Origin: Kiritimatiellia bacterium
GTDB taxonomy: Bacteria; Verrucomicrobiota; Kiritimatiellia; CAIVKH01
DNA length: 64,000 nucleotides
Direction of reading: 5' to 3'
NCBI GenBank assembly: GCA_025054615.1
Contig: JANWZO010000006.1
Coordinates: 7,596 to 71,595 of the forward strand
How positions within the stretch are numbered: the first letter of the stretch is position 1; each line of letters starts with the position of its first letter. Below, one piece after another: positions 5,774-63,412 of this stretch. The position numbers and the translations under genes were made by a program. A model generated the notes under the pieces. It was not told the DNA's origin. It did no database searches and saw only the letters and a program-made list of their open reading frames with translations.

Positions 5774-5971
5774 CGGCCAGATGTCAGCGGTTCTAACTCA
5801 GGGACCGTTCGCCAATTTCCATTCCCTGTAAAAAAAATTTTTAGGGCTTCCATGCTGTGTAAATTTCGCTTCATGGAAGTGGCGGCGCACCACGCCCAAG
5901 GACAAGGCGGCGAGACTCGAAAGCCGATCCAATCGCAGGCGGGCCGAATTTTTGAATCGGACTGCGCCGAG

Positions 5972-7174
5972 CTAATTGTCCGCCCCGCCGACGACCCCGG
6001 CAAGGGTCACATTGCCGTCCGAATTCGCGGTGAGCAGCCGCAAACCGGCTGGCGTCTGAAAAACAACGAGGTCGTTTGGAGGCGCCGACACCAGCAATCG
6101 ATCGAGAAGAGCCGGCTTTGACGGGTCAGTCACATCCAGCATGACGATACGGTCCGTCCTTGCGCAGGCGACCCAGGCCCATACGCGAGAGCCGCTGCGC
6201 AGCAAAGCCAAGGTATGCGGGTCCCGGTCTTTGCGCGGCCGATTTTCCCGAACCAGCGGCCGAATGTCCACCCTCGCGGCGCGTTCCGCCGCCGGAATGC
6301 CTCCAGCGAGGGTCACACGGTAAAAGCTGACCATCTGGGCCTTCTGTTCGGCGACGCCCAGCAAGAGCGAGTTATCTGGTAGGTTTACCAGCGCCATTCC
6401 AGTAGGCCCGCTGCCTTTCGGCAGCCGCAAGATCCCGGCCCACTGAGGTCCGCTTTTATCGAAATTCATCCATACGATAGTATCGGCCGTGGGGACGGAG
6501 ACCGCGGCGAGCCGGCCCAGCGGGTCGACTGCGACGAATTCCGGTTCGTGTCGGCTAAGCGACTGTCCCAGCATCGAGGCAAGACCGGATAATTCCCGAT
6601 ACGGGATTTCCTGGAGGCGATTTTGTTCCCAGCCCTCAAGGTTTCTAAGATCAAACACGCCGACGGAGCCCTCGGTGCGGCGATTGTCGGCTCCGCTGTT
6701 TGCGACGATGGCCCACGCCCCATCCGGCGTAATCGCAACATGGGCTGGGGCGAACCCCACAAGTTGAGACCGCAACAGGCGGCCGGGAGACCGCTCGCGT
6801 AGGTCCAAAAAAAGAGCCTCCCCGCGAGATGCGGCGTCGTTGGGGCGACTCAGGGCGATCGCCAGCGGATGAAAGGGGTGGACGGCCACAGCGACTGCCC
6901 TTCCGGGAACGGGGATGGCTGCCGTGGGATCCGTTGGGGGAAAGGCATCGATTTTTTCGAAACGGGAGGAATCCCAATCAGGACGCAGGAGGTGGATTTC
7001 GCGGGCTGACGGGGCGGCCACTAGGACATAGTTCGGTCCGGGCGCCACGGCGAGTCGGTCCATTCCCGGCCCACCCGCGCGGTAGTCGAAGAGATGGGCC
7101 ATGATCGAGTCGGCTCTCGACGAGGCGGCAAGGCCGGCCAGCACAATCATGGCGAGGAAACAAGTCCGTTTCAT
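5972..7174 (-). CDS. Secreted beta-propeller repeat protein (signal peptide; YVTN/LVIVD-like repeats); function unknown
   Basis: N-terminal signal peptide (MIVLAGLAASSRA) and repeated hydrophobic-strand segments typical of beta-propellers. Overlaps the upstream gene by 4 nt. Confidence 0.55.
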   Translation of the reverse strand: MKRTCFLAMIVLAGLAASSRADSIMAHLFDYRAGGPGMDRLAVAPGPNYVLVAAPSAREIHLLRPDWDSSRFEKIDAFPPTDPTAAIPVPGRAVAVAVHPFHPLAIALSRPNDAASRGEALFLDLRERSPGRLLRSQLVGFAPAHVAITPDGAWAIVANSGADNRRTEGSVGVFDLRNLEGWEQNRLQEIPYRELSGLASMLGQSLSRHEPEFVAVDPLGRLAAVSVPTADTIVWMNFDKSGPQWAGILRLPKGSGPTGMALVNLPDNSLLLGVAEQKAQMVSFYRVTLAGGIPAAERAARVDIRPLVRENRPRKDRDPHTLALLRSGSRVWAWVACARTDRIVMLDVTDPSKPALLDRLLVSAPPNDLVVFQTPAGLRLLTANSDGNVTLAGVVGGADN

Positions 7175-8391: not shown

Positions 8392-8464
8392 GACCGGGTT
8401 TATAGCCGTCTGTCCTCAGGATGGAAAGCCGACGCGTTGCGAATCGGTTGTTGCGTGCTAGTTT

Positions 8465-18673: not shown

Positions 18674-19597
18674 ATGGAAAATCTGATCATTTTGGGCACT
18701 GGCGCGGCGGGCCTGACCGCGGCGATTTATGCGGCGCGGGCCAACCTGAACCCGCTGGTCATTGACGGCCTCCAACCGGGCGGGCAATTGACGACGACGA
18801 CCGAGGTCGAAAATTTTCCGGGATTCCCCGACGGCATCCTCGGCCCGGACCTGATGAACCGCATGCGCGCCCAAGCCGAGCGCTTCGGCGCGCGCTTTCG
18901 CTTCAACGTGGTGGAGCGCGCCGAGCTGACCGGCTCGCCGTTACGCGTGACACTCGATGACGGATCCACTCTGGAAACAAAAACTCTAATCATCGCCACC
19001 GGCGCGAGCGCCAAGTATCTCGGCCTGCCCAACGAACAGAAACTGATTGGGCGCGGCGTCACCTCGTGCGCCACCTGCGACGGCGCTTTCTACAAGAACG
19101 TCCCCGTCGCCGTGGTAGGCGGCGGCGACTCGGCCATGGAGGAATCGACGTTCCTGACGCGATTTGCCTCCATCGTTTACCTGATCCATCGCCGCGACCA
19201 GTTTCGCGCGTCGAAGATCATGGCCCAGCGCGCGCTGTCCAACCCGAAGATCAAGCCGATCTTCAATACCGTAATCGAGGACGTGTACGACGTCTCGCGG
19301 AATGAAGTCACCGGCCTCCGATTGAAAAATGTCGTGACGGGCGAGACCTCCGATCTGGACGTCAAAGCGCTGTTCGTCGCGATTGGCCACACGCCGAACA
19401 CGGCGCCCTTCCGCGGCCAGTTGGAGATGGATGAGCGCGGCTATCTGATCACGCGGAATACTCGGACCAACATCCCGGGCGTGTTCGCTGCGGGAGACGT
19501 GCAGGACCCCGTCTATCGGCAGGCCGTTACGGCCGCGGGCTCCGGCTGCATGGCCGCCCTGGAGGCCGAGCGCTACCTGGAGGCCCTCGGCCATTGA
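18674..19597 (+). CDS. trxB: Thioredoxin-disulfide reductase
   Basis: FAD site ILGTGAAGLTAAIYAARA, redox-active CATCDG, NADPH site VAVVGGGDSAMEE. RBS GAGGAA upstream of the ATG. Confidence 0.9.
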   Translation: MENLIILGTGAAGLTAAIYAARANLNPLVIDGLQPGGQLTTTTEVENFPGFPDGILGPDLMNRMRAQAERFGARFRFNVVERAELTGSPLRVTLDDGSTLETKTLIIATGASAKYLGLPNEQKLIGRGVTSCATCDGAFYKNVPVAVVGGGDSAMEESTFLTRFASIVYLIHRRDQFRASKIMAQRALSNPKIKPIFNTVIEDVYDVSRNEVTGLRLKNVVTGETSDLDVKALFVAIGHTPNTAPFRGQLEMDERGYLITRNTRTNIPGVFAAGDVQDPVYRQAVTAAGSGCMAALEAERYLEALGH

Positions 19598-26588: not shown

Positions 26589-27605
26589 CTAGAAAAGCTC
26601 CGGCTGCCTCGCGCGCGGAGGAAGTCCAAATTTCTTGTAGCAGAGATCGGTGGCCACCCGACCTTGCGGCGTCCGCTTCAAATAGCCCTCCTGGATCAAA
26701 TACGGCTCGTATACCTCCTCAATCGTGCCCGCCTCTTCGCCCACCGAGACGGCCAGCGAATTCACGCCCACGGGCCCTCCGCCGAACTTGTGGACGATCG
26801 TCTCCAGAATCCGTTTGTCCATCTCGTCGAGACCGTGCTCGTCGATGTCGAGCATCGACAGCGCCTGGTCCGCCACCTCGCGCGTGATCCGGTTCCCGGC
26901 GCGGACCTGAGCATAATCGCGAACCCATCGCAGCAGATTGTTCGCGATTCGCGGAGTCCCGCGCGCCCGCTGCGCGATTTCCCGCGCGCCGGCCTCATCG
27001 ATGTCCACGTTCAGGATCCGCGCCGACCGCGTCACGATCTGCATCAGCTCCTCCGGCGTGTAGTAATCGAGCCGGTTCGCCAGCCCAAATCGGGAGCGGA
27101 GCGGCGCGGAGATCAGCCCGCTGCGCGTCGTCGCGCCGACCAGCGTGAATTTCGGCAGCGTCAGGCGGACCGACCGCGCGTTCGGGCCCTGGTCAATCAC
27201 GATATCCAGCACATAATCCTCCATCGCCGAGTAGAGATATTCCTCCACCGCCTTTGGCAGCCGGTGAATCTCGTCGATGAAGAGGATGTCCCCCTTCTGC
27301 AGATTTGTTAGCAGGCCCGCCAGCTCGCCGGCCTTCGTGATCACCGGGCCGGACGTCGCCTTGACGTTCACGCCCATCGCCTCACCGATGATGAAGGCGA
27401 GCGTCGTCTTCCCCAGCCCCGGCGGCCCGAAGAGCAGAATGTGGTCCAGTACGTCGCCCCGCCCGCGCGCGGCCGCCACAAACAGCTCCAGCCGCTCCCT
27501 CACCTTCGCCTGCCCAATGAAATCCGAAAACTTCGAGGGCCGCAGCGAGACGTCAAACTCCGTGTCCGCGCGGTTCAGCGTGTTGGTGATGAAGCGATCC
27601 GCCAT
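26589..27605 (-). CDS. ruvB: Holliday junction branch migration ATPase RuvB
   Basis: [13 protein letters not shown], sensor motifs, and C-terminal winged helix; collinear with RuvB. Confidence 0.95.
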
Positions 27606-27716
27606 ACGTTCAGCCCGCGGATTCTACACGGACCGCCCCGTTTGGACACCGTTTTTGCGGCCCTTCATCGGTTTCCGCTGCTCCTCAAGCGCGCGGCGAG
27701 TCCGTCGGCCTGCCGG

Positions 27717-27896
27717 CCGGCGCCGATTTTTCCATTCCATGGAAATTCTTCCCGAAATTTTTCCATGGCATGGAAATTTCCGCGAAAATTTTTCCATCGC
27801 ATGGAAATTTTCGCGCGAGTTTTTCCATGGCATGGAAAATTTTTTCAGCGATTTTCCATGGCATGGAAATTTTCTCCGGCGATTTTCCATACGATG
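27717..27896. repeat. Tandem array of six 31-32-bp direct repeats, each with palindromic core TTTCCATG-N1-CATGGAAA followed by ATTTT and a variable G/C segment; located between ruvA and ruvB
   Basis: Seen directly: units start near 27720, 27751, 27782, 27813, 27845 and 27876. Cores are TTCCATGGAAATT, TTTCCATGGCATGGAAATTT, TTTCCATCGCATGGAAATTTT, TTTCCATGGCATGGAAAATTTT, TTTCCATGGCATGGAAATTTT, TTTCCATACGATGGAAAATTT. Non-coding: the unit length is not a multiple of 3. Confidence 0.9.
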
Positions 27897-28004
27897 GAAA
27901 ATTTCCGGGCCTCGTTTCGGAATGGAGGGGCGATCATCAACGCATCTTTTCGGAAGGCCCGGCAAATCGCCGCCGGCGACGCGCCGCGCGGCGGGCCGTT
28001 CGGG

Positions 28005-28607
28005 TCAGCTCGCGCGCGAGAGCGCCTTACGGACGAGGTCCTCGACCGTCGCGGCGGGCCCCGACTCCGACAGCGCGGCCCGAACCATGGCGAGCGCCTC
28101 GGCCTGCTTGTAGCCGAGGGATACAAGGGCGAGCACCGCGTCGCGGGCGCGCAGGTCCTCCGCAGAGGGCGTGGCCGCGCCGGACACGGCCTCGAGCATT
28201 TCCCCTTCGGTCAGCTTGTCTTTGAGTTCCACGATGATTTTTTCCGCCGTCTTGCGCCCGATCCCTTTGACGGAAGCGAGTCGGCGGACGTCCTGCTCGG
28301 CGATCGCCGCCTTGATCTCGCGCACGGACAGGCCGCCGAGCACGCCGAGCGCCGTTTTGGGGCCGACCCCTGCCACCGTGCACAGCAGCCGGAAAATCCG
28401 ACGCTCCTCCTCGGCGGCGAAGGCGTAAAGCTCGTGCGCGTCCTCGCGGATGTGCAGCACGGTGAGGACCTTGCACGAGGCGCCCTCGGGCGGTAGCCGA
28501 TCGTAGCTGGAGAGCGGAATCCACGCCTCGTAGCCGACCCCGCCGACGTTGACCACGATTCGGCCCGGCTGCTTTTCCTCGAGGACGCCTTGCAGGAATG
28601 AAATCAT
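28005..28607 (-). CDS. ruvA: Holliday junction DNA helicase RuvA
   Basis: N-terminal OB-fold (MISFLQGVLEEK...VVNVGGVGYEAWIP), HhH motifs (GVGPKTALGVL...VKGIGRKTAEKII), and C-terminal domain III. Confidence 0.9.
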   Translation of the reverse strand: MISFLQGVLEEKQPGRIVVNVGGVGYEAWIPLSSYDRLPPEGASCKVLTVLHIREDAHELYAFAAEEERRIFRLLCTVAGVGPKTALGVLGGLSVREIKAAIAEQDVRRLASVKGIGRKTAEKIIVELKDKLTEGEMLEAVSGAATPSAEDLRARDAVLALVSLGYKQAEALAMVRAALSESGPAATVEDLVRKALSRAS

Positions 28608-35750: not shown

Positions 35751-38363
35751 TTGGAGTCCGCCATGGGCCCGACTGCATCGACGCCCAACGACCGAGTGCC
35801 GGCCGAATTTCATTTCGATCTGGCCAACCGGATCAGCGAGCTCGCGATGCGATGCGCATCAACCTCTTCTCTGGGTCGTGCGATCCATCAGTTGCTGACC
35901 GAATTTATACCCGCGGTCAATGTGTATATCGCGGTCTACGACGCCAGTGAATCGCTGATTCGATTCCCCTACTGGATGGACCGCTTTGACCCACCGCCCG
36001 GAATCAAAACGCCAAACGTCGGCCTAACCGAGTATGTGCTGCGGAAGGGGGTGGCTCTGTTTGCAGATGCCGAGCGTCTTGAAGAACTTGAACGGCTGGG
36101 GGATTGTCGCGTGCTGGGTACGCGCCCCCGTTATTGGGTCGGCATTCCTCTGATTCGTCGGGGCGAGACCTTTGGCGTGTTTGCCGTTCAAGCCTACGAC
36201 GGTGATCCAGCGCTCGAACCGCGTCATGCAGACCTTCTCGTGCATCTGGCGCCAACACTGTCGATGGCGATATTCGCCCAACAAATCGGTTATCGTCGAG
36301 ACCGTCGTGACGCGCTGCTCCGGGCGGCGGCGGACATCAGCCTCTATTTTCTGCGCGACATAGCTTGGGCAAGCCATGCGAAAGAGGCGCTGAGCCTCGT
36401 GGGTCGTGCGGCCGACGTCAGCCGGTCCTACCTCTTTCGGGTTGAGAAAATGGCGGATGGCCGGTTCCTTGCAGATCAGCTCTTCGAATGGACTGCCGAG
36501 GGAATTCATCCCGAGATCGACAACCCCCTCTTGCAACGACTTGATCTGGCGGCTGCGGGATTTCAGAGATGGATCGATTACCTCGTGAAGGGCGACCCGA
36601 TCAGCGGGCCCGTGGCGCAGATGCCCTTGACGGAGCAGCCGCTGCTTCGATCCCAGGGCATTTTGTCGCTGCATATCGCACCCATCCATGTCGATGGGGA
36701 ATGGTGGGGGTTTCTCGGTTTTGATGATTGCGTCATGCCGCGCGCGTGGTCGATTGCCGAGCGGGAGTCGCTCCGGCTCGTTGCGACGGTTTTTGCTCAG
36801 GCCATACTTCGGGAGCGGGTCTATGAACAATTCGAATTACAACGAGCCGCGCTGGGGGCGGTGGCCAACGGTGTTCTCATCACGGACCCGACCGGGGGCA
36901 TTTTGTGGGTGAACGACGCGCTATGTCGCCTGACCGGATATACGGCCGACGAGATGGTCGGTAGGACGCCCGCGCTCTTCAACTCGGGCAGGCACCCTCC
37001 CGAATTCTTTCGCAAGATGTGGGAGACTATCGGTCGCGGAATGGTCTGGGAGGGCGAGATCACGAACCGCAAAAAGGATGGGTCCCTGTGCACGGAGGAA
37101 ATGACCATCACTCCGATGCGCGACGCGACCGGCAAAATTCGGAACTACATCGCGATCAAACAGGACATTACCGAGCGCAAAATCTTCCAGCAGCATCTCG
37201 CGCAAATCCAAAAAATGGAGAGCCTTGGCCGTCTCGCCGGCGGTATTGCTCATGATTTCAACAATCTTCTTCAGGCCATCACGGGCTTCAGCTCCATGTT
37301 GCTGACGAACCTCAGTCACGATGATCCAAGGCGTGAGGACGTGCTCGAGATTCTGCAGGCCGCCCACCTGGCGACGGACCTGACCCGTCAGCTGCTGATG
37401 TTTGGACGGAGGAGCCCTCCCTCTTGGGACCGGATTCAGTTGAACGAAACCATCCAATCGGGCCTGAAAATGTTGCGCCGCCTGATCCGGGAGAACATCT
37501 CCATCGAAACCGACCTGGATCCCGATCTTCCGCTGATTTTGGGAGACTCCGGCCAGATCGCGCAAATTCTGGTGAATCTTTGCGTGAATGCCGGCGACGC
37601 AATGCCCGAAGGCGGCCGTTTGCGGTTGTCGACGCGAAAGACGGTTTTCCCGATGGATGCGGCGGCCGCCGGAAGCGTGGAGGAAGGGCAACCGGCGGCA
37701 CTTCTCGAAGTTTCGGACACGGGGGTGGGCATCGCGCCCGAAGTCATGGAAAAAATTTTCGAGCCCTTCTTCACAACGAAGGAGCCCGGACATGGGATCG
37801 GGCTTGGCCTGTCCGTCGTTTACGGAATCGTCCGCCAGCACCATGGACATATCGAGGTCAAAAGTCGGCTTCACGAGGGGTCGGTCTTTCGCATTTATTT
37901 CCCCGCGGCGCCGGCTGATCCTCAGGGGCAGCAAGAGGACGGAACGGCAAAACGCAACGAGTCGGTTGAGCCGGCGGGCGGACGCGGCGAGCACATCCTT
38001 GTTGTGGAGGACGAGCCGGGTGTCGGGCAATTTTGTCTTCGCATTCTGAGTTCAAACCGTTATCGCGTCACCCTCGCGAGGACCGCCGCAGAGGCGCGCG
38101 CCTGTTTTTACCGATCGAATTCCACGTTTGATTTGTTCTTCAGCGATGTCGTCCTGCCCGATGGTAGCGGCGTGGATCTGGCGAGGGAGTTTCGGCAAGT
38201 GCGCCCCGCCCTCAAAGTGCTGCTTTCCAGCGGCTATGCGAACCAGCAGGAGACATGGATGCGTCAACGCGAACGTTTTGATGGGTTTTTGCCCAAGCCC
38301 TATCACCCGTTTGCGCTTCTCCGCGAAATTCGCGCAGCGCTTGACGCCGCACCGCAATCATGA
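35751..38363 (+). CDS. Hybrid sensor histidine kinase (GAF/PAS sensor - HisKA - HATPase_c - REC), cytoplasmic
   Basis: PAS with PAC region, H-box [20 protein letters not shown]1/G2 boxes (NLCVNAGDAM...DTGVGI...GHGIGLGLS), C-terminal receiver (ILVVEDEP...FSDVVLPDGSG...KPY). Confidence 0.9.
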   Translation: MESAMGPTASTPNDRVPAEFHFDLANRISELAMRCASTSSLGRAIHQLLTEFIPAVNVYIAVYDASESLIRFPYWMDRFDPPPGIKTPNVGLTEYVLRKGVALFADAERLEELERLGDCRVLGTRPRYWVGIPLIRRGETFGVFAVQAYDGDPALEPRHADLLVHLAPTLSMAIFAQQIGYRRDRRDALLRAAADISLYFLRDIAWASHAKEALSLVGRAADVSRSYLFRVEKMADGRFLADQLFEWTAEGIHPEIDNPLLQRLDLAAAGFQRWIDYLVKGDPISGPVAQMPLTEQPLLRSQGILSLHIAPIHVDGEWWGFLGFDDCVMPRAWSIAERESLRLVATVFAQAILRERVYEQFELQRAALGAVANGVLITDPTGGILWVNDALCRLTGYTADEMVGRTPALFNSGRHPPEFFRKMWETIGRGMVWEGEITNRKKDGSLCTEEMTITPMRDATGKIRNYIAIKQDITERKIFQQHLAQIQKMESLGRLAGGIAHDFNNLLQAITGFSSMLLTNLSHDDPRREDVLEILQAAHLATDLTRQLLMFGRRSPPSWDRIQLNETIQSGLKMLRRLIRENISIETDLDPDLPLILGDSGQIAQILVNLCVNAGDAMPEGGRLRLSTRKTVFPMDAAAAGSVEEGQPAALLEVSDTGVGIAPEVMEKIFEPFFTTKEPGHGIGLGLSVVYGIVRQHHGHIEVKSRLHEGSVFRIYFPAAPADPQGQQEDGTAKRNESVEPAGGRGEHILVVEDEPGVGQFCLRILSSNRYRVTLARTAAEARACFYRSNSTFDLFFSDVVLPDGSGVDLAREFRQVRPALKVLLSSGYANQQETWMRQRERFDGFLPKPYHPFALLREIRAALDAAPQS

Positions 38364-41300
38364 CATGGATCACCAGCCACCTTGACCTGATTTACTTTCT
38401 ATATGGGGCCTCGTTCGCTCTGCTTGCGGCCCTTTCAGGAGCGGCGCAGGAGGCCAATCGACCGTCATCGGTTCGTTTGCCCTGGTTTTGGTTGAGTTTT
38501 TTTGCCTCTGTGCACGCGGTGCACGAGTGGCTCGTGATGGTCAACTTTTCGCTCGATTCCAGAGCGCTAAGGTTTTTGGGGCTCTTTTTCCTGGGTTCAT
38601 CGTACGCCCTGCTGTTTGAATTTGGCCGCCGCGGGGCGGGGAAAGCGGGGTTTGCATGGCGAGTCTACGCGCCCGCTGCTTCCGTAGTGACTTGTGGAAT
38701 CGCACCGACTTTCGTGGCTCTCGAAACGGCGGATGGCGCCGCCCGATTCTTCATCGGCTTTCCCGCGTCGCTGCTTTCCGCCTACGCGATGATCCGAATG
38801 GCCAGCGAGGGGTCGCCAGCCTCCGGTACCCGCTCGCTCCGGATGGCCGCTTGTGCGTTTGCCGTGTATGCCATTGCCGCTGGCGCGACCCCCCCGCCTT
38901 CGGCATTTCTTCCCGCGCGGGTCTGGAACACCGCGGCTTGGGCGTCGCTTCTGGGATTTCCGGTCGAACTGCTGAGAGCCGCCTGTGCTCTGACCCTTGC
39001 CGCGGCCATCTGGAAATTGTCACTGAACCCCGCCTCGCAAGGAATCATCGCCTCTGAACGCCGGTTCAATTTGTCATTACACGCAACTCTGGCCAGCGTC
39101 GCAGCTCTTTCTGTTCTGACAGTTTTGTCGGCATTCATGGTCGACCGCTTGTCGGCGTCGCAGATTCGGGACGAGATGATTCAAAAAATTCGCGCTGTGG
39201 CCGCGCTTTTGGATCAATCCATGCTCGAAGCGGTTGTGCGAGAATCTCCAGCCGAAACCAACCCCCTCATTCGGTCGCTGGAGAGGGAATTGACGCTGGC
39301 CAAACAGGCCTTTCCCGACATCGAACAAATTTACCTCTACACTCTTCAGGACGGTAAATTTGTTTTCTATGCCTCGTCCGAATCGAATCGGCCCGAGACG
39401 CGAGTCCGGCCCGGCGAAATTTTCGAAGGGGATGTTTTTCCCGAGGATTATGAAATCTTCGAAAACGGGGTGCCCTATACGATAGGACCGTTTCAGGACC
39501 GATGGGGCCGCTGGGTCAGCGCGCTTGCCCCTGCGCTGATCGACCCGAAAGCCGATCCGCCCGTGCGCATGGTTGCCGGACTCGACATGCCGGCTAATGT
39601 CTTCGAACGTGAAATTGGCCGCTGGCGGCTGGTGGCGCTGGGCATCGGCGCCTTGGTCATCTCGCTGTTGCTGGATCTCTTCTTGAGGCATCAGCGTCTT
39701 TGGTGGTTTGCGCAAAAGATGGCCGAAGCTGAGCGCTCACAGCGGGCGCTCAGCGAAGAGCTGGAGCGCCGGGTCGCTGAGCGCACCGGCCAGCTTGCGG
39801 ACGCCAACCAGGCCCTCATGCTCGAAATGGCGCGCTATCGCGAACTGGAGAACAAATATCGCTCCCTGACCGAACGACTGCCGGCTATTACATTTCGTGT
39901 CGATCTCATTCCGCGTCCGGTTACGACGTATGTTAGCCCCAGGCTTCAGGATATTTTGGGATACAGCCCCGCAGAATGGCTCGCCGATCCGGACATGTGG
40001 AAAAGGGTCTTACATCCGGAGGACCGCGATCGCGTCCTGGCCGCTCTAAAGGAAGCCGACCAACGCGGCACTTCCTTCAGCATTGATTTCCGCATGGCAG
40101 CCGCTTCGGGCAATTACCGCCATCTCCGCGCCATCATGACCTATGAACACCACGTGGATGGAAAGCCGGCCGTGGTTAATGGCGCGATGATCGATCTTAC
40201 CGAGGAAGTAGAGCGCGAAGCGCGACTGCGGGAAGCCGGCGAGCGGTATCGCCAGTTGTTCGAACGTTCGCCCATCGGCATTTTTCATTATGATCTGAAT
40301 TTGCGGATCACGGATGCGAATCAACGGTTCGCTTCATTGGTGGGTTTGACACGGGAGAGTCTGGCGGGAGCCGACCTTCACTCCCTCATCGGTTCAGAGG
40401 AACTCAACCAAGCCCTGGCGACCGCGCTTCGAGGCGGAGAAAGCTATATGGAGATTGCCGGCGGATTTGTGGGGGCGCCGGCGGACATCTGGCTGGGCAT
40501 ACGAACTCTGCCTCTGGTCGGCGCCAAGCACGCCGTTACAGGGGGCGTCGCGATTGTGGAGGATTTGAGCGATCGGCGACGAGCGGAGGAGGAACGAATG
40601 CGCACGCAAAAACTCGAATCTCTGGCCGTCATGGCTGGCGGTATCGCGCATGATTTCAACAACATTCTCACTTCGATCTTGGGCAATCTTTCCCTAATTC
40701 GAGCCATTCTGCCCTCGCAAACGCCCTTCGAGGAAATGCTCCATGACGCTGAGCGCGCCGCCCTCCGCGCACGCGACCTGACCCGGCAGCTTTTAGCCTT
40801 CACGAAGGGCGGCGCGCCGCAGAAAGCGCTTCACAATGTGCCGGGGCTGATCCGAGAAGCTGCCGACTTCTCACTGCGCGGCTCAGCAAGCCGGTGTGTC
40901 TTTGAGTTTGCAGCCGACACATGGAACGCCGAACTGGATGCCGGCCAGTTCAGCCAGGTCATCCAAAACCTCGTCATCAACGCCGATCAAGCGATGCCCC
41001 ACGGGGGGACGATTACGGTGCGCACCTCTAATCGAATGCTGCAGGCCGGCGAGGTGGCGGACCTGCCGGGTGGCGCGTACGTCCAGATTGAGGTATCGGA
41101 TACGGGAGTGGGGATCCCAGAACGAATCCGGAACCGCATTTTTGATCCATACTTTACAACCAAAGCTCAGGGAACCGGCCTGGGTCTCACGATCTGTTAT
41201 TCGATCGTGCGCAAACACGGCGGACACATTTCGGTCTCCTCCGTGGAAGGAAAAGGATCCACTTTCACGGTCCTTCTTCCCGCGGCTCCGGATCGCCGTC

Positions 41301-41791
41301 CTGACAAGTCCGAGGAATTGGATTCGCTGCCCGATTCCGTCATCCGCGGCCGCGTGCTGGTCATGGATGATGAGAAGTCAATCCTGGCGTTCGCGCGAAG
41401 AACCCTGGAAATGCAGGGATTCGAGGTCATTACAGCCGAAAACGGGGATGAAGCCATTCGGCTGGTTGATTCTGAACGGCGAGCCGGCCGCGTAATCGAC
41501 ATTGCGATTCTCGATATGACGATTCCCGGCGGCATGGGCGGCAAAGAGACCATCGGACCTCTGCGGGATGCGAATCCGGACCTCCCCGTGGTGGCGTCCA
41601 GTGGTTACACCGCCGAACTCCATCACGAAGAATTTGAGCGGTACGGATTCTCCGCCTCACTGTCCAAGCCGTACCGTGCCCAGGAACTAGTCCAGACCGT
41701 TCATCGCCTGCTTCTCCAGCGCCGCATGAAGCAGACGATTTCGCCGCGGGGGGAACCGGCTAATTCTCCTCTCTTGGGAAGCTCCTCATGA
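38360..41791 (+). CDS. Hybrid sensor histidine kinase with N-terminal polytopic membrane sensor plus extracytoplasmic domain, PAS domains, HisKA, HATPase_c and REC
   Basis: About 7 N-terminal TM helices, an extracytoplasmic Cache/PDC-like segment and a second TM, coiled coil, PAS repeats, H-box [18 protein letters not shown], ATPase boxes, receiver (VLVMDDEKS...ILDMTIPGGMGG). Overlaps HK1 by 4 nt. Confidence 0.9.
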   Translation: MTWITSHLDLIYFLYGASFALLAALSGAAQEANRPSSVRLPWFWLSFFASVHAVHEWLVMVNFSLDSRALRFLGLFFLGSSYALLFEFGRRGAGKAGFAWRVYAPAASVVTCGIAPTFVALETADGAARFFIGFPASLLSAYAMIRMASEGSPASGTRSLRMAACAFAVYAIAAGATPPPSAFLPARVWNTAAWASLLGFPVELLRAACALTLAAAIWKLSLNPASQGIIASERRFNLSLHATLASVAALSVLTVLSAFMVDRLSASQIRDEMIQKIRAVAALLDQSMLEAVVRESPAETNPLIRSLERELTLAKQAFPDIEQIYLYTLQDGKFVFYASSESNRPETRVRPGEIFEGDVFPEDYEIFENGVPYTIGPFQDRWGRWVSALAPALIDPKADPPVRMVAGLDMPANVFEREIGRWRLVALGIGALVISLLLDLFLRHQRLWWFAQKMAEAERSQRALSEELERRVAERTGQLADANQALMLEMARYRELENKYRSLTERLPAITFRVDLIPRPVTTYVSPRLQDILGYSPAEWLADPDMWKRVLHPEDRDRVLAALKEADQRGTSFSIDFRMAAASGNYRHLRAIMTYEHHVDGKPAVVNGAMIDLTEEVEREARLREAGERYRQLFERSPIGIFHYDLNLRITDANQRFASLVGLTRESLAGADLHSLIGSEELNQALATALRGGESYMEIAGGFVGAPADIWLGIRTLPLVGAKHAVTGGVAIVEDLSDRRRAEEERMRTQKLESLAVMAGGIAHDFNNILTSILGNLSLIRAILPSQTPFEEMLHDAERAALRARDLTRQLLAFTKGGAPQKALHNVPGLIREAADFSLRGSASRCVFEFAADTWNAELDAGQFSQVIQNLVINADQAMPHGGTITVRTSNRMLQAGEVADLPGGAYVQIEVSDTGVGIPERIRNRIFDPYFTTKAQGTGLGLTICYSIVRKHGGHISVSSVEGKGSTFTVLLPAAPDRRPDKSEELDSLPDSVIRGRVLVMDDEKSILAFARRTLEMQGFEVITAENGDEAIRLVDSERRAGRVIDIAILDMTIPGGMGGKETIGPLRDANPDLPVVASSGYTAELHHEEFERYGFSASLSKPYRAQELVQTVHRLLLQRRMKQTISPRGEPANSPLLGSSS

Positions 41792-44526
41792 CGCGATTTC
41801 GCCTTTCCCAGTTGGCCCTCGCCGGTTCTGTAGTCGGCCTCATCTTCGGCAGCACCCTCGTTTGCGCCCTCGCTCTCGGTCTGCTGCCCGCATCGAAAAC
41901 GACCCTTGCGGCAACGGTCGTCGCCGTTGCACTGACGCTCGCCAGTTTTCTCGGGTATGTCCACGGTCTTCGTAAACGCATCCAGAGGTTGAGGGACCGT
42001 GCTCAACAGGTGTCCTACCTCGGCGAACCTCCCCGGGCGGAGACCGCACCCAGTCGATCCTCCGGCGAACCCTGGGAGGTCGAAATCTCAAACGCGTTTG
42101 ATCAGTTAACCGAGGAAATCATTCGGTTACGGCGCGAAAATGCCGAGCTTGAGGAAGGTCTTCAGCAGCGGACGTCGGAGCGAGATGAGGCCCGCAAATC
42201 GCTCGCCGAACTATCCCTCAAACGGATCCAGGACGACCGCGAGCATGCGGAAAAGGAACGGCTGTATCGCGCCCTACTCGACACCTTGCCGATTGGGGTC
42301 ATCCTACAGGATGCGGCGGGCAACATCCTCGATGCCAACCGAGCGTTCAGCGAACTGACCGGCTTTTCTCGCGATGAACTCGCGGGTCGGCTGGCCGCGG
42401 AGGTGTTCGAGCCGCCCGTCCGCTCGGAGGCTGGATCAAAAATCCGCGACACATCCCCCGATGATTCCGTCGTCCGCGAGGTGTCTCTGCGAAATCGGGA
42501 CGGCAGAACGCGTTTCGTTGAAATCCGTGAACGCGGCATCACTCTACCGGAGGGACGACGCCGCATCATCGTCACGGCGATGGACATCAGCGCCAGGAAA
42601 CAACACGAAGAACTTCTCCGGGAAAGCGAGTTGCGGTATCACACCCTTTTCAACACGATGATCACCGGCTTCGCCCTGCATGAAATCATCTGCGATGAGC
42701 AGGGCCGGCCCGTTGATTACCGCTTCATCGATGTCAATCCGGCCTTCACCGCGATGACGGGCCTCCGCCGCGACGAGGTGCTGGGCAGGCGTGTTCGGGA
42801 AATTTTTCCGGACATCGAACCGGTTTGGATCGAACGATATGGCAAGGTGGCGCTTACGGGGCGCCCGATTGCGTTCGAGGAGTATTCGGCTGACCTCCAG
42901 AAATATTTCTCAGTGATTGCGTTCAGTCCCCGCCGGGGGCAATTCGCTGTGAATTTCATCGACGTCACCGAGCAGCGACGCGCGATGGACATCGTCCGTC
43001 TACAGGGAGCCGCGCTTGAGTCCTCGGCAAACGCGATCATGATTGTCGACCGGGAGGGTGTTATCACGTGGGTGAATTCCGCGTTCACGACCCTGACCGG
43101 TTACAGCCGAGAGGAAGTCCTTGGAAAGAGCCCCAACATCCTGAAGTCGGGCCGGCATCCTCCGAACTTCTACAAGCAATTGTGGGATACGATCCTCTCC
43201 GGTCAGCTTTGGCGCGGTGAAGTCATCAATCGCCGAAAAGACGGATCACTCTATCTCGAGGAGCTGATCATCACGCCCGTGTTGGACGCTCAGGGTCGAC
43301 CCTCGCACTTTGTCGCCATCAAGCAGGACATTACGGAGCGCCGCTCTCTCCAGCAGCGCCTGATGGAGGCTCAAAAGATGGAGACCATCGGACGACTGGC
43401 CGGGGGCATCGCACACGACTTTAATAACATTTTGCAGGCTATCACCGGTTTCAGCCATCTGTTGCTGGAGAGCATGGACCCGCGAGATCCGCTCCGCGCC
43501 GATGTCATCGAAATCGATAAGGCCGCACGACGAGCCGCCGAGCTGACCCGCCAGTTGCTGGCCTTTGGGCGCAGGCAGATGCTGGAACCGCGGGCGGTCG
43601 ACATCAATGCGCTTGTCGAGGGCACCCGGAAGATGCTTCAGCGGCTGATCGGGGAAGATATCGAGTTGGAGGTGCGACTCGAACCCAATCTCGACCCTGT
43701 CCGCGTCGATCCGGGCCAGATCGAGCAGGTGCTCGTCAATTTGACGCTCAATGCGCGCGACGCCATGCCGTCCGGTGGCCGCCTCACGATTTCAACCGTC
43801 GGCATCGTGCTGCTCAAAGAGGACGCCCTGATGATGCCGGAAAAACGACATGGCCGGTTCGTTGTGCTTGACGTGACGGATACTGGGGTCGGTATGACGC
43901 CCGAGGTTCGCGAGCGGATTTTCGAACCGTTCTTTACGACAAAAGGACCGGGACGCGGGACGGGATTGGGCCTCTCGGTCGTGTATGGCATCATTCAGCA
44001 ACATGAGGGGATGATTCACGTCTACAGCGAGCCGGGCCAGGGGACGACCTTTCGAATCTATCTGCCCGTCTGCGGCGATGGGTCCGCCGTGGAAACGAGC
44101 GCCCTCGAGGACAGGCAGCGGTTGACCGCGCTGCCGCGGGGTCGAAATGAAAAGATCCTGGTCGTCGAAGACGAGGCGGGCATCCGGGAATTCGTATCAA
44201 ACGCTTTGCGGCAATACGGCTACCAACCCATTCTTGCGGGCCGGGCCGATGAAGCAGAAAAGTTGTTTGACGAAAACGACGGCTCGCTTTCTCTGCTGTT
44301 TACGGATGTGGTGCTACCCGACCGCACGGGTCTGGAACTGGCCGAAGCATTGCGACGAAAAAAGTCCGAACTGCGCGTTCTCCTCACCAGTGGTTACACC
44401 GACGACAAGTCGCGCTGGCCGCTCATTCGCGAGCGCGGATACCCCTTCCTTCAAAAACCGTATCCCCTCCAGACCCTACTGCACACCATACGTCAGACGC
44501 TGGACCTTCCGCCTCCACCCGCTTGA
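41788..44526 (+). CDS. Hybrid sensor histidine kinase (2 TM - coiled coil - multiple PAS - HisKA - HATPase_c - REC)
   Basis: Two TM helices, PAS repeats, H-box [18 protein letters not shown], ATPase boxes, receiver (ILVVEDEAG...[12 protein letters not shown]). Overlaps HK2 by 4 nt. Confidence 0.9.
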
Positions 44527-45070
44527 CCGTCCGACGAAAGCCGTATTGACTTCTGCAGCGACGAACGATGGATGTCGTCCGTGAAAAACAGCACTGGGGC
44601 GTGTGCATATTGCCGGCGGCTCTTTGTGTTGCCGGAAATATTGTCCACTTCAGGAGTGCAAACACTTTCGCGGAGGAACTTGGGTCTCACCTTCTCTGAG
44701 TGATTCTCCCATCCCGATCAGGATGGAAACTTGAAATGAAAGCCGGCGCCACTGCCTATCTATCTCACTCATGACCTGTTGTATGGAGATTGCGACGTAG
44801 CCGACGCATCGTGTGAATTTTCACGGGACGAAACTCAGCTTGCCTGCTCGCTTGGCACGAATGCGTCTCACCCCTTACGCTTCGCCATCATGAAACCTTT
44901 GCCTCGATTCCTTCGACGGTCACCGGGGACTTTCAATCGATCGGCAACATCGCTCTCCCAATTGCTTCTGACTGGACCGAATGGCGCGCGGTTGGCATCG
45001 ATTGCGTTTCCTCCTCCGCGAACGCAACGGTCGTGGTCTTGCCTCCTTTATGGCGGCTGACCCGTTCGCC

Positions 45071-52868: not shown

Positions 52869-53822
52869 ATGTCCAGCTCACCTGTTCCCGACCGCACGCT
52901 GAAGGACTACCTCGGAATCGCCGGGATCGGCGCTGCTATGGGCGCGGCGGATGTCGTGCCTGGCGTTTCGGGCGGAACCATGGCGTTCATTCTGGGCATC
53001 TACGATGAGCTGCTGGCGACGGTCAAATCCTTCAACCTCGAGTTCCTCAAGTTGCTGGTGCGCTTTCGGCTGAAGGCGGCGCTTGAGCATGTCAACTGGA
53101 AGTTCCTTCTCTCCCTCGTCCTCGGCCTGGGGACGACCCTCGTGACGCTCGCGCACGCCATCACCTATTTGCTGGATCACCACCCCGTGCCGCTCTTCGC
53201 GTTCTTCTTCGGGTTGATTCTCGCCTCAATCGTCTCTGTCGCCACCCACGTAAAATGGAACTTTGCGATGGCGGCGGCTTGCGCCCTCGGCGCGTTTGCT
53301 GCCTACAAAATCGTTCGGCTCGTCCCCGTGACCATGCCGAATGATCCGTTCACGCTATTCTGGTGCGCGGCCGTCGCGATCATGGCGATGATTCTGCCGG
53401 GTATCTCTGGATCCTTTATCCTCTTCATCCTTGGTCAGTACCGATTCGTGATGGAGGCGGTGAAATCCCTCGACGTCCTCACGCTCCTGCCATTCGCCCT
53501 CGGCGCCGCGTCGGGCCTAATGGCCTTCTCCCGTGTTCTGACGTGGCTGCTCAACCACTACCGCCGGCTGACCATCACGCTGCTGGTCGGGTTCATGATC
53601 GGTTCGCTCTGGAAAATCTGGCCGTTTCGCAAGGTGATCGAAACCGTCGAAAAAAAACCCGGCGAATGGATCCCGATCCGCGAGACGGTGGTCTGGCCCG
53701 ATCAGTTCACCGCCGAGGTGGCGCTTTCGATCCTCCTATGCATCGCTGGCTTTGTCCTCATCCTCTGGATCGATCGACTGCAGTCGGAAGCCAATCCGCT
53801 AAAAAAAATTGTGCGCGAATGA
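52869..53822 (+). CDS. DUF368-domain membrane protein
   Basis: DUF368 signature GAAMGAADVVPGVSGGTMAFILGIY and multiple TM helices. Confidence 0.75.
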   Translation: MSSSPVPDRTLKDYLGIAGIGAAMGAADVVPGVSGGTMAFILGIYDELLATVKSFNLEFLKLLVRFRLKAALEHVNWKFLLSLVLGLGTTLVTLAHAITYLLDHHPVPLFAFFFGLILASIVSVATHVKWNFAMAAACALGAFAAYKIVRLVPVTMPNDPFTLFWCAAVAIMAMILPGISGSFILFILGQYRFVMEAVKSLDVLTLLPFALGAASGLMAFSRVLTWLLNHYRRLTITLLVGFMIGSLWKIWPFRKVIETVEKKPGEWIPIRETVVWPDQFTAEVALSILLCIAGFVLILWIDRLQSEANPLKKIVRE

Positions 53823-53916
53823 GCGGCGTCCACTTGGATCCCATGGGACGGAATTTACATTCTATGGAAACCACTCCGCGCCATTTTTACATACGATGGA
53901 AATCAGGAGGGCGGCC

Positions 53917-54891
53917 ATGACCCACCGCTACCTGGCTCGGGCGCGGGAAGTGATCGACACTGAAATCGAGGGGCTCCGCCGCGTTCGAGACGCCCTCGAC
54001 GAAGCCTTCGTGAAAGCGGTGGAGCGAATTCTTACTGCTCTGGGCGCCGGCGGGAAGATCGTGGTCTGCGGCGTTGGCAAAAACATCCCGATCGGCCAAA
54101 AAATTGCCGCAACCCTCACCAGCACGGGAAGCCCCGCTGTCTTCCTCCATCCGTCCGACGCCATGCACGGCGAGCTCGGAATCCTCTCCGACGGCGACGT
54201 CGTCGTCGCCTTAAGCTATAGCGGTGAATCCGAGGAGCTTCTGAATCTTCTCCCGGCCATCAAACGCCGCAAGCTTCCGATCGTCGCGATCACCGGCTCG
54301 CGAGAGAATGCGCTGGCGCGCGTCAGTGATGAAGTGATTGTCGCCGCAGTGGATGCCGAGGCCTGCCCCTTCAACATGGCGCCCACCGCCAGTACCACTG
54401 CCGCGCTAGCTGTTGGCGACGCACTGGCCATGGTGCTTCTCGAAGCGCGGGGATTTCGCAAAGAGGATTATGCCGAGTTACATCCCGGCGGGGCCATCGG
54501 CCGGACACTTCTGCTGAAGGTCGAAGACATCATGCGCACGGGGCCGAGGCTGGCAACTGTGCCGCGCGGCGCGCGCGTCAAGGACGCCGTGGTTGCGATG
54601 TCCAGCGCGCGAGCCGGGTCCGTGGTGATCATCGACGGCGACCGAAAAGTCGCCGGGATTTTCACTGACGGAGATTTGCGACGGCACCTGGACCTGGCCG
54701 ACCTGCCGAACCGAGTTATTGACGAGCTGATGACTCGGAACCCGATCCGCATCCGCATAGGACGGCTCGCGGTCGAAGCCCTCGCAATATTTGAGAAGCA
54801 TAACATCGACGACCTCATCGTGGTCGACGACAGCGACCGGCTGGCCGGCTGCATCGACATTCAGGACCTTCCAAAATTCAAAATCTTGTAG
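53917..54891 (+). CDS. kpsF: Arabinose-5-phosphate isomerase (KpsF/GutQ family; SIS plus tandem CBS)
   Basis: SIS domain (KIVVCGVGKNIPIGQKIAATLTSTGSPAVFLHPSDAMHGELG), tandem CBS (VEDIMRT...). GGAGGG RBS 7 nt upstream of the ATG at 53917. The ORF-track entry starts upstream at 53809. Confidence 0.9.
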   Translation: MTHRYLARAREVIDTEIEGLRRVRDALDEAFVKAVERILTALGAGGKIVVCGVGKNIPIGQKIAATLTSTGSPAVFLHPSDAMHGELGILSDGDVVVALSYSGESEELLNLLPAIKRRKLPIVAITGSRENALARVSDEVIVAAVDAEACPFNMAPTASTTAALAVGDALAMVLLEARGFRKEDYAELHPGGAIGRTLLLKVEDIMRTGPRLATVPRGARVKDAVVAMSSARAGSVVIIDGDRKVAGIFTDGDLRRHLDLADLPNRVIDELMTRNPIRIRIGRLAVEALAIFEKHNIDDLIVVDDSDRLAGCIDIQDLPKFKIL

Positions 54892-54959: not shown

Positions 54960-56024
54960 CTAGCCGATCAGCCGCTCGGCGGCCTCCTCGATTGGACCGG
55001 CCCCGTTTCGGATCCCCATCCGGCGCAACAATTGGCGAACCAGCGCAATTCGCCGCTCTTCGAGTTCCAGTCCGGCTGCGCCGCCCGTCTCGAGATAGCC
55101 GGCAGCCATCTTGTCATGGCCGCCCGCCGCGCCGTTTCGGCCGATGGCGGCGCGGATGATCCGATTGCATGACGCGGCCCGCCGGCTGCTGCGAAGGGAT
55201 ACGAACAGCCGCCCGGGCAGTTCAGCCGTGCAGAACGACCATCGGATACCCTCCATTCGCAGTAGCAAATCAGCGACCTCGGCGGCCATTTCCGGCTGTT
55301 CAATGGCGCTCAAATGGGTCCAGGCGACGTCGCGCAGCACCCGCGCTCGAGAGAGCGCCTCCTGAAGCCGGACGAAGTACACACGGGACAGCGGAGCATG
55401 CCGAATCCGCCCGATGATCCGCAGATCCGCTTTGGCAACCAGGGAAAGGTAGGCCTTCAAATCCGGCGCCGACACCTCCCGCGTCAGGTCAAGGGTTTCC
55501 GAAACGATGGCGTAGGCCATCACCGCCGCCAGCCAGCGCGGGATATCGACGCCCGCCGCTTCCAGATATTCCAGCGCAAGCGTTGCAGTGGCGCCGGCCT
55601 CGCCTCGGATGTCAATGTGGGCGCCGCTGAGATCCGGGATGGACTTGTGTTCATGGTGGTCGATCACCACTCGGGCGACGGCACCCGGCGGCAATGTGAC
55701 ATTCCGCGACCACGGCGCAGTGTCCACCAGGATGCAATCGTGTTCCGAGACGCCGCGGAGATTGAGGTCCTCAAGGCGGTGCCAGCGGCATTTGAGTCGA
55801 CGCAACAATTCCTTGTTCTCCGCGCGCGACACATCACCGCTGAATGCGATTTGGCTCTGAATTCCAAAATGCTTGTCGAGCAGCCAATGGATGGCCGCGG
55901 CTGAAGCGATGGCATCCGGATCGGGGAAATCGTGGGGGACGATCAGTATGCGCCGATTCGATGGCAGCGCCCGACGGAGCGAATCCAGTCTCGACGAGCT
56001 CGGTTCCGACGGCGGCGTTTCCAT
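54960..56024 (-). CDS. DHH-family phosphoesterase (NrnA-like oligoribonuclease/pAp phosphatase)
   Basis: DHH motifs ILIVPHDFPDPDAIASAAA, DTAPW, VIDHH, plus the DHHA1 region. Confidence 0.8.
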   Translation of the reverse strand: METPPSEPSSSRLDSLRRALPSNRRILIVPHDFPDPDAIASAAAIHWLLDKHFGIQSQIAFSGDVSRAENKELLRRLKCRWHRLEDLNLRGVSEHDCILVDTAPWSRNVTLPPGAVARVVIDHHEHKSIPDLSGAHIDIRGEAGATATLALEYLEAAGVDIPRWLAAVMAYAIVSETLDLTREVSAPDLKAYLSLVAKADLRIIGRIRHAPLSRVYFVRLQEALSRARVLRDVAWTHLSAIEQPEMAAEVADLLLRMEGIRWSFCTAELPGRLFVSLRSSRRAASCNRIIRAAIGRNGAAGGHDKMAAGYLETGGAAGLELEERRIALVRQLLRRMGIRNGAGPIEEAAERLIG

Positions 56025-63233: not shown

Positions 63234-63412
63234 GAGACAGTTTGGGATCTAAAAGCGGTTCCGAACAATTTCCATTCAGTGCCACCATCTTCGGGCCGAT
63301 TGAATAAAAGGAAAGACCGAATCGTCAGAGGTGACAGCAGGCCGCCATTTGCCGGCGACTTGCGAACGGATGAAAGAGCAGGTATGAATTGTTGGTTGTC
63401 AGGAGGTCTAAC

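Follow-up and report, generated by a model that had tools for sequence, protein, structure and literature searches.

The words ATGGAAA and TTTCCAT, which recur in distant intergenic regions of a 64,000-nt stretch of DNA from a Kiritimatiellia bacterium (contig JANWZO010000006.1; the whole stretch is referred to as the window), are the two arms of one 17-bp palindrome, TTT(C/A)CA(T)-N3-(A)TG(G/T)AAA. A mismatch-tolerant search of the window with TTTCCAT-N3-ATGGAAA returned ten full palindromes, which are all intergenic and all organized in phased sets (one of six and two of two units), while shuffled sequence yields none. One of the pairs precedes kpsF, and a phased pair with conserved arms and spacing is found before this gene in five species. 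As judged from the palindromic arms, the exact phasing and the conservation before kpsF, the element is most likely the docking site of a regulator rather than a promoter hexamer or a chance word. We consider it probable that the palindrome is the recognition site of a putative dimeric DNA-binding protein, which would bind cooperatively on one face of the DNA and control the adjacent gene. The shared words had been noticed in a sequence-only reading of the window. This observation could be confirmed in part and was substantially sharpened, and its interpretation (a promoter element or transcription factor site, or else a small repeat element) is partly supported.

A position weight matrix (PWM) was trained only on sites from other genomes (98 foreign units with the consensus ATTTTTCCATTCAATGGAAAAAT), and the maxima of 20 shuffled windows served as the null. 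This matrix recovers exactly the ten window sites, which score 14-35 bits against a shuffle maximum of 9.3 bits (Table 1). The six-unit array (unit starts at 27729, 27760, 27791, 27822, 27853, and 27884) is flanked by two minus-strand genes, ruvA (28005-28607) and ruvB (26589-27605), which were assigned from Pfam matches, and lies 124-295 bp upstream of the ruvB start. The same six units are present, identical in sequence, at locus L057 of an independent Logan assembly and thus the array is not an assembly artefact. The pair that starts at 5816 follows a DtxR/MntR-like gene (5111-5773, plus strand) in the spacer between two convergent genes, and both of its units carry a TGTAAA arm variant. 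Both kpsF units of the window carry a TTTACAT arm; the second one ends 14 nt before the kpsF ATG (53917) and abuts the AGGAGG Shine-Dalgarno sequence.

Table 1. Palindromic units and related sites in the window, and units found before kpsF in related genomes.
Feature	Sequence	Position or locus	Strand	PWM (bits)	Spacing	Remarks
kpsF unit 1	TTTACATtctATGGAAA	53854..53870		22.2		1 mismatch to TTTCCAT-N3-ATGGAAA
kpsF unit 2	TTTACATacgATGGAAA	53886..53902		22.6	32 bp from unit 1	
Six-unit array		27729..27900		32-35	31-bp period	perfect palindromes
First unit of pair	TTTCCATtccCTGTAAA	5816..5832		18.9		
Second unit of pair	CTTCCATgctGTGTAAA	5847..5863		14.2	31 bp from 5816 unit	
Candidate decayed solitary unit	TTTCCATtcaGTGCCAC	63269..63285		8.3		retains the left arm but has lost the right one; divergent spacer of rsmD and lpoB
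Orphan half site	TCAGGATGGAAA	8416..8427	+	0.1 (8411-8427)		DUF3592/CPBP divergent spacer
Orphan half site	TCAGGATGGAAA	44718..44729	+			454-bp spacer after hybrid histidine kinase; 44713-44729 not among PWM matches
Units before kpsF (KpsF 85% identical)	TTTCCATgccATGGAAA, twice	L069			31 bp	15 nt to ATG
Units before kpsF (KpsF 84% identical)	TTTACAGacgATGGAAA, twice	L066			31 bp	9 nt to ATG
Units before kpsF (KpsF 81% identical)	three units	L067			31 bp	last unit overlaps called start
Units before kpsF (KpsF 77% identical)	GTTACAGacgTTGGAAG and TTTCCAAgcgTTGGAAA	L068			32 bp	17 nt to ATG

KpsF homologues with 77-85% sequence identity were traced to their contigs, and a five-way alignment was built from the window and the loci L069, L066, L067, and L068. 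All 21 invariant columns of this alignment belong to the palindrome arms or to the T run directly before the left arm of the second unit, and there is not a single invariant column in the upstream sequence, in the palindrome centres or in the rest of the linker. In L068, the gene upstream of the pair is a different one and is divergently oriented. On the sequence level, this is the pattern of a classical phylogenetic footprint, and the proposal of a transcription factor site is thus supported at the kpsF locus. A second case of positional conservation is found for L062 and L063, which code for RuvA proteins with 92% identity to each other. Both have a 32-bp pair of the variant TTCCAA...TTGGAA directly before ruvA, with unrelated linkers; the array of the window instead precedes ruvB.

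At several loci, units reach the called start of the downstream gene. In L064 (17905-17975) and L011 (about 2000-2060) the called coding region already includes the final one or two units at its 5' end, just before a signal-peptide-like stretch, and in L013 and L067 the called start codon is the ATG of the last right arm. Either these starts have been mis-called or the sites overlap the translation starts.

The enrichment of the short word, from which the analysis started, is real. ATGGAAA occurs 28 times on the two strands of the window, against an expectation of 8.0 +/- 2.8, with 12 of these copies inside the six-unit array. Outside the array, six copies are concentrated in merely 2.7-3.6 kb of intergenic DNA, where about 0.2 would be expected by our own estimate from base composition. 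ATGGAAA shares the rank of third commonest intergenic 7-mer and is the sole AT-rich word among the top 25. Its ten coding copies correspond to about the chance level, and two of them simply represent a start codon followed by a Glu codon (18674-18680, plus strand, in a trxB-like gene; 56018-56024, minus strand, in a DHH-family gene). The trxB-like gene truly starts at 18674, where a GAGGA Shine-Dalgarno sequence precedes it.

Several statements of the sequence-only reading had to be corrected. The window has 61.6% GC instead of 65%, and the 8-mer GATGGAAA, for which less than one chance occurrence had been claimed, is expected 2.8 +/- 1.5 times and was observed 11 times. The copy of CATACGATGGAAA at 53890-53902 is correctly placed, while that within the array is at 27888-27900 and not, as given, at 27878-27890, a shift by 10. 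The positions given for TCAGGATGGAAA (8416 and 44718), CAATTTCCATTC (5813 and 63266), TCCCATGGGA (53839), and ATGGAAA (53864) are right. There are indeed 12-mers shared between different intergenic segments, exactly two of them and both motif-bearing; however, their number alone is not significant (shuffle mean 0.51, P(>=2) = 0.115). The 10-bp palindrome TCCCATGGGA near kpsF is not supported as a member of the family, as it is not conserved in the relatives; by our own estimate, about 70 perfect 10-bp palindromes occur by chance in such a window. The recurrence of the motif was correctly noticed, but a 7-8-mer is not the proper unit of analysis: the actual unit is the 17-bp palindrome, which is nearly always found in helically phased sets. 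A fixed distance upstream of start codons in sense orientation, which had also been proposed, has no meaning for a palindrome, and this proposal rested partly on the orphan half sites, which do not score as members of the family.

These orphan half sites (8421 and 44723) have neither a partner arm nor a phased neighbour, and the 11-mer CAGGATGGAAA that they contain was found in none of 69 foreign loci. Membership of the half sites at 8416 and 44718 in the family is not supported. Two unrelated intergenic regions have the 12-mer TCAGGATGGAAA in common, an observation for which the palindrome family does not account. The solitary site at 63269, which has CAATTTCCATTC in common with the 5813 region, is borderline, since one of the 20 whole-window shuffle maxima exceeds its score; it may be a decayed member of the family.

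The palindrome family is not restricted to the window. A pattern of two perfect palindromes 12-16 nt apart (perfect pair) was scanned against one genome per species from 185,579 species, which resulted in 28 loci from 7 assemblies, with fewer than 1e-4 chance matches by our own estimate. All taxonomically labelled loci are from metagenome-assembled genomes (MAGs) of Kiritimatiellae/-ia or Verrucomicrobiota. A metagenome scan added 28 further loci, mostly from the same species, and a collection of viral contigs contained no perfect pair. No orthologous flanks were found between the window and the first 28 loci. After de-duplication, 49 distinct arrays with a total of 151 units were obtained, with 2-6 units per array and up to 7 in the raw loci. 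The centre-to-centre spacing within these arrays is discrete: it amounts to 31 bp (43 times), 32 bp (38 times) or 22 bp (17 times), rarely to 30 or 33 bp (twice each), with nothing between the two classes. While 31/32 bp correspond to three turns of the helix, 22 bp correspond to two turns.

As a set that is not biased by the motif, we used eleven loci (216 kb) which had been obtained via their proteins. In these loci the relaxed palindrome core, TT(C/A)CA-N5-TG(G/T)AA, has 21 matches, against about 0.3 that are expected by chance according to our own estimate, and 18 of the 21 belong to a phased pair. The relaxed motif has no copy in 21 kb of two of these Kiritimatiellae genomes (GC 0.45 and 0.53), and thus the family belongs to a part of the class. 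In genomes which do have the motif, roughly 5% of the spacers hold an array, at a density of about one per 20-30 kb; the window has three in 64 kb. The arm sequence is constant across genomes with 51-71% GC while the linkers drift. A description of a TTTCCAT/ATGGAAA element, or of such repeats in Kiritimatiellae, was not found by full-text searches of the literature that was accessible.

The palindrome could in principle act as a hairpin in RNA. A perfect unit folds at -5.1 kcal/mol, while the kpsF and 5816 units are close to zero; the hairpin of the second kpsF unit has a free energy of about -0.9 kcal/mol and is not better than shuffles. Of the 10 units of the kpsF orthologues, 7 have lost the central C-G pair, and their covariation does not exceed that of shuffles (180 of 500). 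When units were oriented by their flanking genes, counts of G-U pairs and mismatches were the same for the sense (10/29) and the antisense strand (11/28). In an Rfam scan of the window, only a tRNA passed the threshold, the best score in the array region being 30 bits against a cut-off of 100. It is the arms and the helical phase that are conserved, and not the pairing, which matches the need of a dimeric protein that reads double-stranded DNA. We therefore discarded an RNA hairpin or leader element, for which there is no Rfam family and no strand asymmetry of wobble pairs, and for which pairing has been lost at the conserved kpsF sites. A hint of strand-specific U-G pairs at position 7 was contradicted at position 1 and disappeared once units were oriented by gene direction. 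An intrinsic terminator was also rejected: the stems have only 2 G-C pairs out of 7, and a single opposite-strand site at the array edge is within the shuffle expectation.

If the element were read by the RNA polymerase holoenzyme, TTTCCA or TTTACA might represent a -35-like box or some phylum-specific promoter motif. TTTACA of the kpsF units matches TTGACA at five of six positions, and many arrays end 5-55 bp before a start codon (median 55 bp, with 13 of 41 at a distance of at most 27 bp). In addition, the linkers in JAFTAH01 have the same orientation relative to the downstream gene in 6-7 of 7 arrays; against this, linker orientation is mixed in CAZGMQ01 (5:2) and in CAIVKH01. No pair of sigma-70-type -35 and -10 boxes at a distance of 16-18 bp was detected around the three window loci (27550-28050, 53780-53960, and 5740-6000), and in the kpsF alignment the would-be -10 position falls into the non-conserved linker. 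Moreover, the palindrome needs a second, phased copy, and arrays also occur in convergent spacers. The promoter element of the sequence-only reading is thus not upheld, and we regard a promoter function as very improbable. Even less can be said for a compositional artefact, by which an AT-rich word would be enriched just because intergenic DNA is less rich in GC. The chance-level count in coding regions, the start codons among them and the non-significant number of shared 12-mers would fit such a view. However, intergenic GC is 0.59 compared to 0.62 for the window, which leaves six copies against an expected 0.2; full palindromes do not arise in shuffles, and the phased palindrome recurs in other genomes and at orthologous places. 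Chance is refuted for the full sites, with practically no probability left to it, and could apply only to the orphan half sites at 8421 and 44723.

Within each of several genomes, the arrays have features that are typical of copied DNA. In CAZGMQ01, CAIVKH01 and JAFTAH01, linkers and modules of three to four palindromes are near-identical at unlinked loci, and this resembles copying rather than an independent evolution of sites. In CAZGMQ01, the arrangement P1-CTATTTTCnnnnTT-P2-AAATG-P3 is found at 11 loci with only four free linker positions. This module consists of P1 (CCAT type), 14 nt, P2 (CCAT type), 5 nt, and P3 (CCAC...GTGG type), which results in spacings of 31 and 22 bp; it occurs in L002, L004, L006, L014, L017, L020-L022, L024, L026, and L028, and the three-palindrome module also in a second species group (L029, L030, L036). 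In JAFTAH01 (L008, L019, L023, L025), the 15-nt linker of the 32-bp unit holds a second palindrome, GAAACATGTTTC, which overlaps the main right arm, so that the array is a chain of alternating TTTCC/GGAAA half sites. CAIVKH01 shows a recurrent order of two CCAT-type units followed by two CCAA-type units. The units of one array have private substitutions in common, and in L064 both units have the same asymmetric arm. This indicates that arrays grow by tandem duplication and that something homogenizes or copies modules. In metagenome assemblies, arrays are frequently located within about 100 bp of contig ends (L029, L031, L044, L048, L052, L053, L055), which suggests that assemblers break at this multi-copy element.

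These features lead to the main rival of a regulator site, namely a dispersed intergenic repeat comparable to REP/BIME, BOX or MIRU elements. According to this explanation, a 31/32-bp unit of palindrome and linker is copied to spacers and amplified in tandem; it would be selfish or would have a generic structural role (mRNA or single-stranded DNA hairpin, supercoiling, gyrase/IHF-type binding) and would not regulate specific genes. The homogeneous linkers and composite modules, the copy number of 2-7 per locus, the shared private substitutions, the array density and the contig ends all speak for it, as do a distribution over contexts that equals the spacer-type baseline and a presence that varies at leuA and in the ruvA-ruvB spacer. 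It does not account for a kpsF pair that has been kept in five species with only arms and spacing retained, and in one of them with a changed upstream neighbour, or for the ruvA pair in two species; nor does it predict identical arms in genomes of such different GC content while the linkers drift. Copying alone leaves the discrete spacing of two or three turns unexplained. A GTAG/CGTC tag, as known from REP elements, is found within 8 nt in 6 of 151 units, compared to 15% at random positions, and flanking direct repeats, compared as potential target-site duplications, are no longer than in mismatched flank pairs. The hairpins are weak and are lost in conserved copies, and wobble pairs show no strand bias. 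The small repeat element that had been suggested from the sequence is thus correct as far as a dispersed, lineage-specific multi-copy family with private substitutions is concerned, but it does not extend to REP tags, target-site duplications or stable hairpins, none of which is present. As a complete explanation we consider the dispersed repeat unlikely. A miniature inverted-repeat transposable element, which would have terminal inverted repeats plus a target-site duplication, is not supported, as no such duplication exceeds the null. With regard to a REP-associated tyrosine transposase (RAYT), no transposase adjoins the arrays in the window. Alternatively, the arrays may be bound by a sequence-specific, oligomerizing protein of architectural, nucleoid-associated or insulator type which organizes the DNA or blocks read-through between genes without regulating particular ones. 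This would agree with the density of about one array per 20-30 kb in some 5% of spacers, with the lack of a preferred spacer type (convergent ones included), with the great diversity of neighbouring genes and with arrays of up to 6-7 units, around which DNA could be wrapped. Because positions are conserved before the same genes across species (kpsF in five, ruvA in two) and, in some lineages, an excess of genes for amino-acid biosynthesis follows the arrays, an exclusively architectural role appears rather doubtful.

A number of observations weigh against the view that the palindrome is a regulator site, even though we prefer it. Near-identity of modules at unlinked loci is one of them, and homogeneity extends into the palindrome itself: units compared within an array agree in all of the inner five bases in 31% of cases, and units from different arrays in 6%. 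Beside the palindrome centre, the 151 units have symmetric T-A (90), A-T (17) and C-G (12) combinations versus 32 asymmetric ones, and such symmetric variation is not predicted by a plain homodimer model. A template-switch correction of quasi-palindromes or the existence of paralogous binders may account for it. Arrays are not depleted in spacer types where no promoter is expected, the 5816 pair of the window included (29 tandem, 6 divergent and 5 convergent spacers with arrays, compared to 41, 8 and 7 for the gene pairs of the window). In four relatives, no counterpart of the six-unit array is present between ruvA and ruvB, and the leuA array of SLBD01 has no counterpart before leuA in three other Kiritimatiellae. 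No regulator gene recurs beside the arrays and no binding protein was found. A tblastn search with an approximate E. coli Lrp query gave no match in 687 kb, which says little about whole genomes. In L068, just a stand-alone AsnC_trans_reg domain protein is encoded, and a winged helix-turn-helix protein beside the array in L015, considered as a regulator, is confined to that species.

The genes downstream of the arrays are diverse. In the perfect-pair loci, 8 of 27 belong to amino-acid biosynthesis (leuA, thrC, leuB, leuD-like, ilvB, hisI, hisF, carB), with leuA and thrC flanking one six-unit array; others are pheS, a Mur ligase gene, hsdS, hrpB, and further genes. Amino-acid biosynthesis accounts for about 4% of the genes in a genome according to our own estimate, and relative to this value the excess is strong (P about 1e-5). 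The clade of the window does not share it; there, the targets are kpsF, ruvA/B, aspS/glgB, and ldh/E1, and the window itself has no amino-acid biosynthesis genes. A conserved amino-acid regulon was dismissed when the three other Kiritimatiellae proved to have no array at leuA. In L060 (about 9790-9990) and L061 (about 9760-9960), the region upstream of leuA has no array, and a short Leu-rich open reading frame, a GC-rich hairpin and a T run are found there. This looks like a leader-peptide attenuator.

Other known types of element were compared by eye and dropped: sigma-54 sites (TGGCAT-N5-TTTTC), since the centre is not conserved; DnaA boxes, with two mismatches in the common type; CsrA sites, as the GGA is paired and the motif palindromic; and LexA sites as well as MntR sites (the latter suggested by the neighbouring gene). 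None of these types fits the contexts. TTTCCA-N17-GAAAAT as a promoter fitted only the linkers of CAZGMQ01. A CRISPR array, with repeats of at least about 23 bp and unique spacers, differs from the 17-bp repeat and the 14-15-bp linkers found here, which are similar to each other and recur elsewhere.

The anatomy of the palindrome, its phasing, its restriction to one lineage and to intergenic DNA, its conservation at kpsF and the lack of conserved hairpin pairing are shown by the sequences, whereas the binding of a protein, its oligomerization and the direction of its effect are our inference. Dimers would occupy 2-7 sites with centres 31-32 or 22 bp apart, all of them on one face of the helix, and may bind cooperatively as a tetramer or a higher oligomer, as NrdR does on two boxes and Lrp-family proteins do on clusters of sites. 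At kpsF, where 9-17 nt separate the pair from the start codon and the ribosome-binding site follows directly, the bound protein would occlude the promoter or the early transcribed region and thus control kpsF, most simply by repression. The six-unit array might act likewise on ruvB from its upstream position. Between this array and ruvB, in 27606-27728, the sequence TGTAGAAT about 19 nt before the ruvB ATG resembles, by eye, an extended -10 box which the consensus scan did not call; if it is a -10 box, ruvB may be served by a separate promoter that lies downstream of the array. Gains and losses of units in an array would come about by tandem duplication of the 31/32-bp repeat unit. We view the arrays as operator clusters in helical phase which, at the same time, have the behaviour of a dispersed repeat, and the repeat idea captures real features of how the family evolves. 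It is conceivable, although we consider it quite unlikely, that they are self-propagating operator cassettes, in which a module of 2-4 palindromes is copied into new spacers and each copy recruits a resident oligomerizing DNA-binding protein. Terminal tags, target-site duplications and nearby transposases, which might reveal how such a cassette is copied, were not seen. Under this scenario, a lineage could bring some 5% of its intergenic regions into a single regulon or a chromatin-like system, and insertions that proved useful, for instance at kpsF and ruvA, would be kept.

To our knowledge, there are almost no experimentally known regulators or cis-elements in Kiritimatiellota. The motif represents a sharply defined, genome-wide cis-element with a simple grammar: a 17-bp palindrome in at least two copies, with two or three helical turns from one copy to the next. 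It is suitable as bait for the binding protein, for the prediction of a large regulon and for the annotation of intergenic regions in MAGs of this class, and it explains assembly breaks at array sites. The data suggest that kpsF, which acts in the supply of 3-deoxy-D-manno-octulosonic acid (KDO) as a lipopolysaccharide (LPS) precursor, and ruvB are under common, lineage-specific control. If the sites both regulate and spread as cassettes, the family would provide a clean example from bacteria of a regulon that grows as binding-site modules are copied.

Two gene clusters of the window are of separate interest. Two ABC-3 (Mn/Zn-type) permeases (514-1791 and 1788-3242, both minus strand) each have a C-terminal Fe_dep_repr_C domain, which is the metal-binding and dimerization domain of DtxR-type repressors. 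They adjoin a ZnuA-like binding protein (4054-5013, minus strand) and the DtxR/MntR-like regulator (5111-5773, plus strand), which has a FeoA domain. The fusion of a permease with the metal-sensing domain of a repressor is unusual. At 35751-44526 (plus strand), three consecutive PAS/GAF hybrid histidine kinases with receiver domains are encoded (870, 1143, and 912 amino acids), and no recognized feature was found in the 454-bp spacer that follows them.

With respect to geometry, the closest known systems are NrdR boxes and the site clusters of Lrp-family regulators. In NrdR operators, two 16-bp boxes are separated by a 15-16-bp linker, with an integer number of turns, usually three, between their centres; both boxes are needed, and a tetramer of NrdR occupies a single face of the DNA (PMC12051234; PMC13584703). 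The pairs of the window have this geometry, that is, partial palindromes of 16-17 bp with a 14-16-bp linker and centres 31-32 bp apart. The NrdR box consensus is acaCwAtATaTwGtgt, and the family sequence TTTCCAT-N3-ATGGAAA is unrelated to it and lacks CAC...GTG arms 8 nt apart. NrdR sites number one to three per genome, in contrast to about one array per 20-30 kb in the present family, in which arrays can also reach 6-7 units and centres can be 22 bp apart. No ribonucleotide reductase gene was present among about 90 flanking or window genes that were scanned.

Sites of the Lrp family are 'always clusters' on the same helix face, with two or three turns from site to site; amino-acid metabolism is often what they serve, and DNA can wrap around the interacting Lrp/AsnC dimers (PMC2995911). 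The 2-7 sites with spacings of 22 and 31/32 bp resemble the clusters of Ss-LrpB, Ptr2 and of E. coli Lrp at ilvIH and pap, and leuA, leuB, ilvB, thrC, his genes, and carB are among the genes downstream of the perfect-pair loci. However, natural Lrp sites are degenerate with AT-rich centres, whereas the palindromes described here are near-perfect with free, often GC-rich centres; their linkers are homogenized within a genome, and the targets in the clade of the window are not amino-acid genes. We draw an analogy of geometry only and do not claim membership in the NrdR or the Lrp family.

With REP/BIME, BOX, MIRU, and Correia-type elements, the family has in common that short palindromes are strictly extragenic, multi-copy and lineage-specific, that they form variable clusters and that they are homogeneous within a genome. 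REP elements have a GTAG/CGTC tag at one end of the palindrome (PMC3733652). In the present family, tag and target-site duplication are missing, the stems are weak, AT-rich and not maintained, and units are arranged as direct tandem copies at a helical period instead of alternating in orientation. What sets these palindromes further apart from REP-like repeats is that their arms are conserved across the whole class and that their positions before kpsF are conserved in five species.

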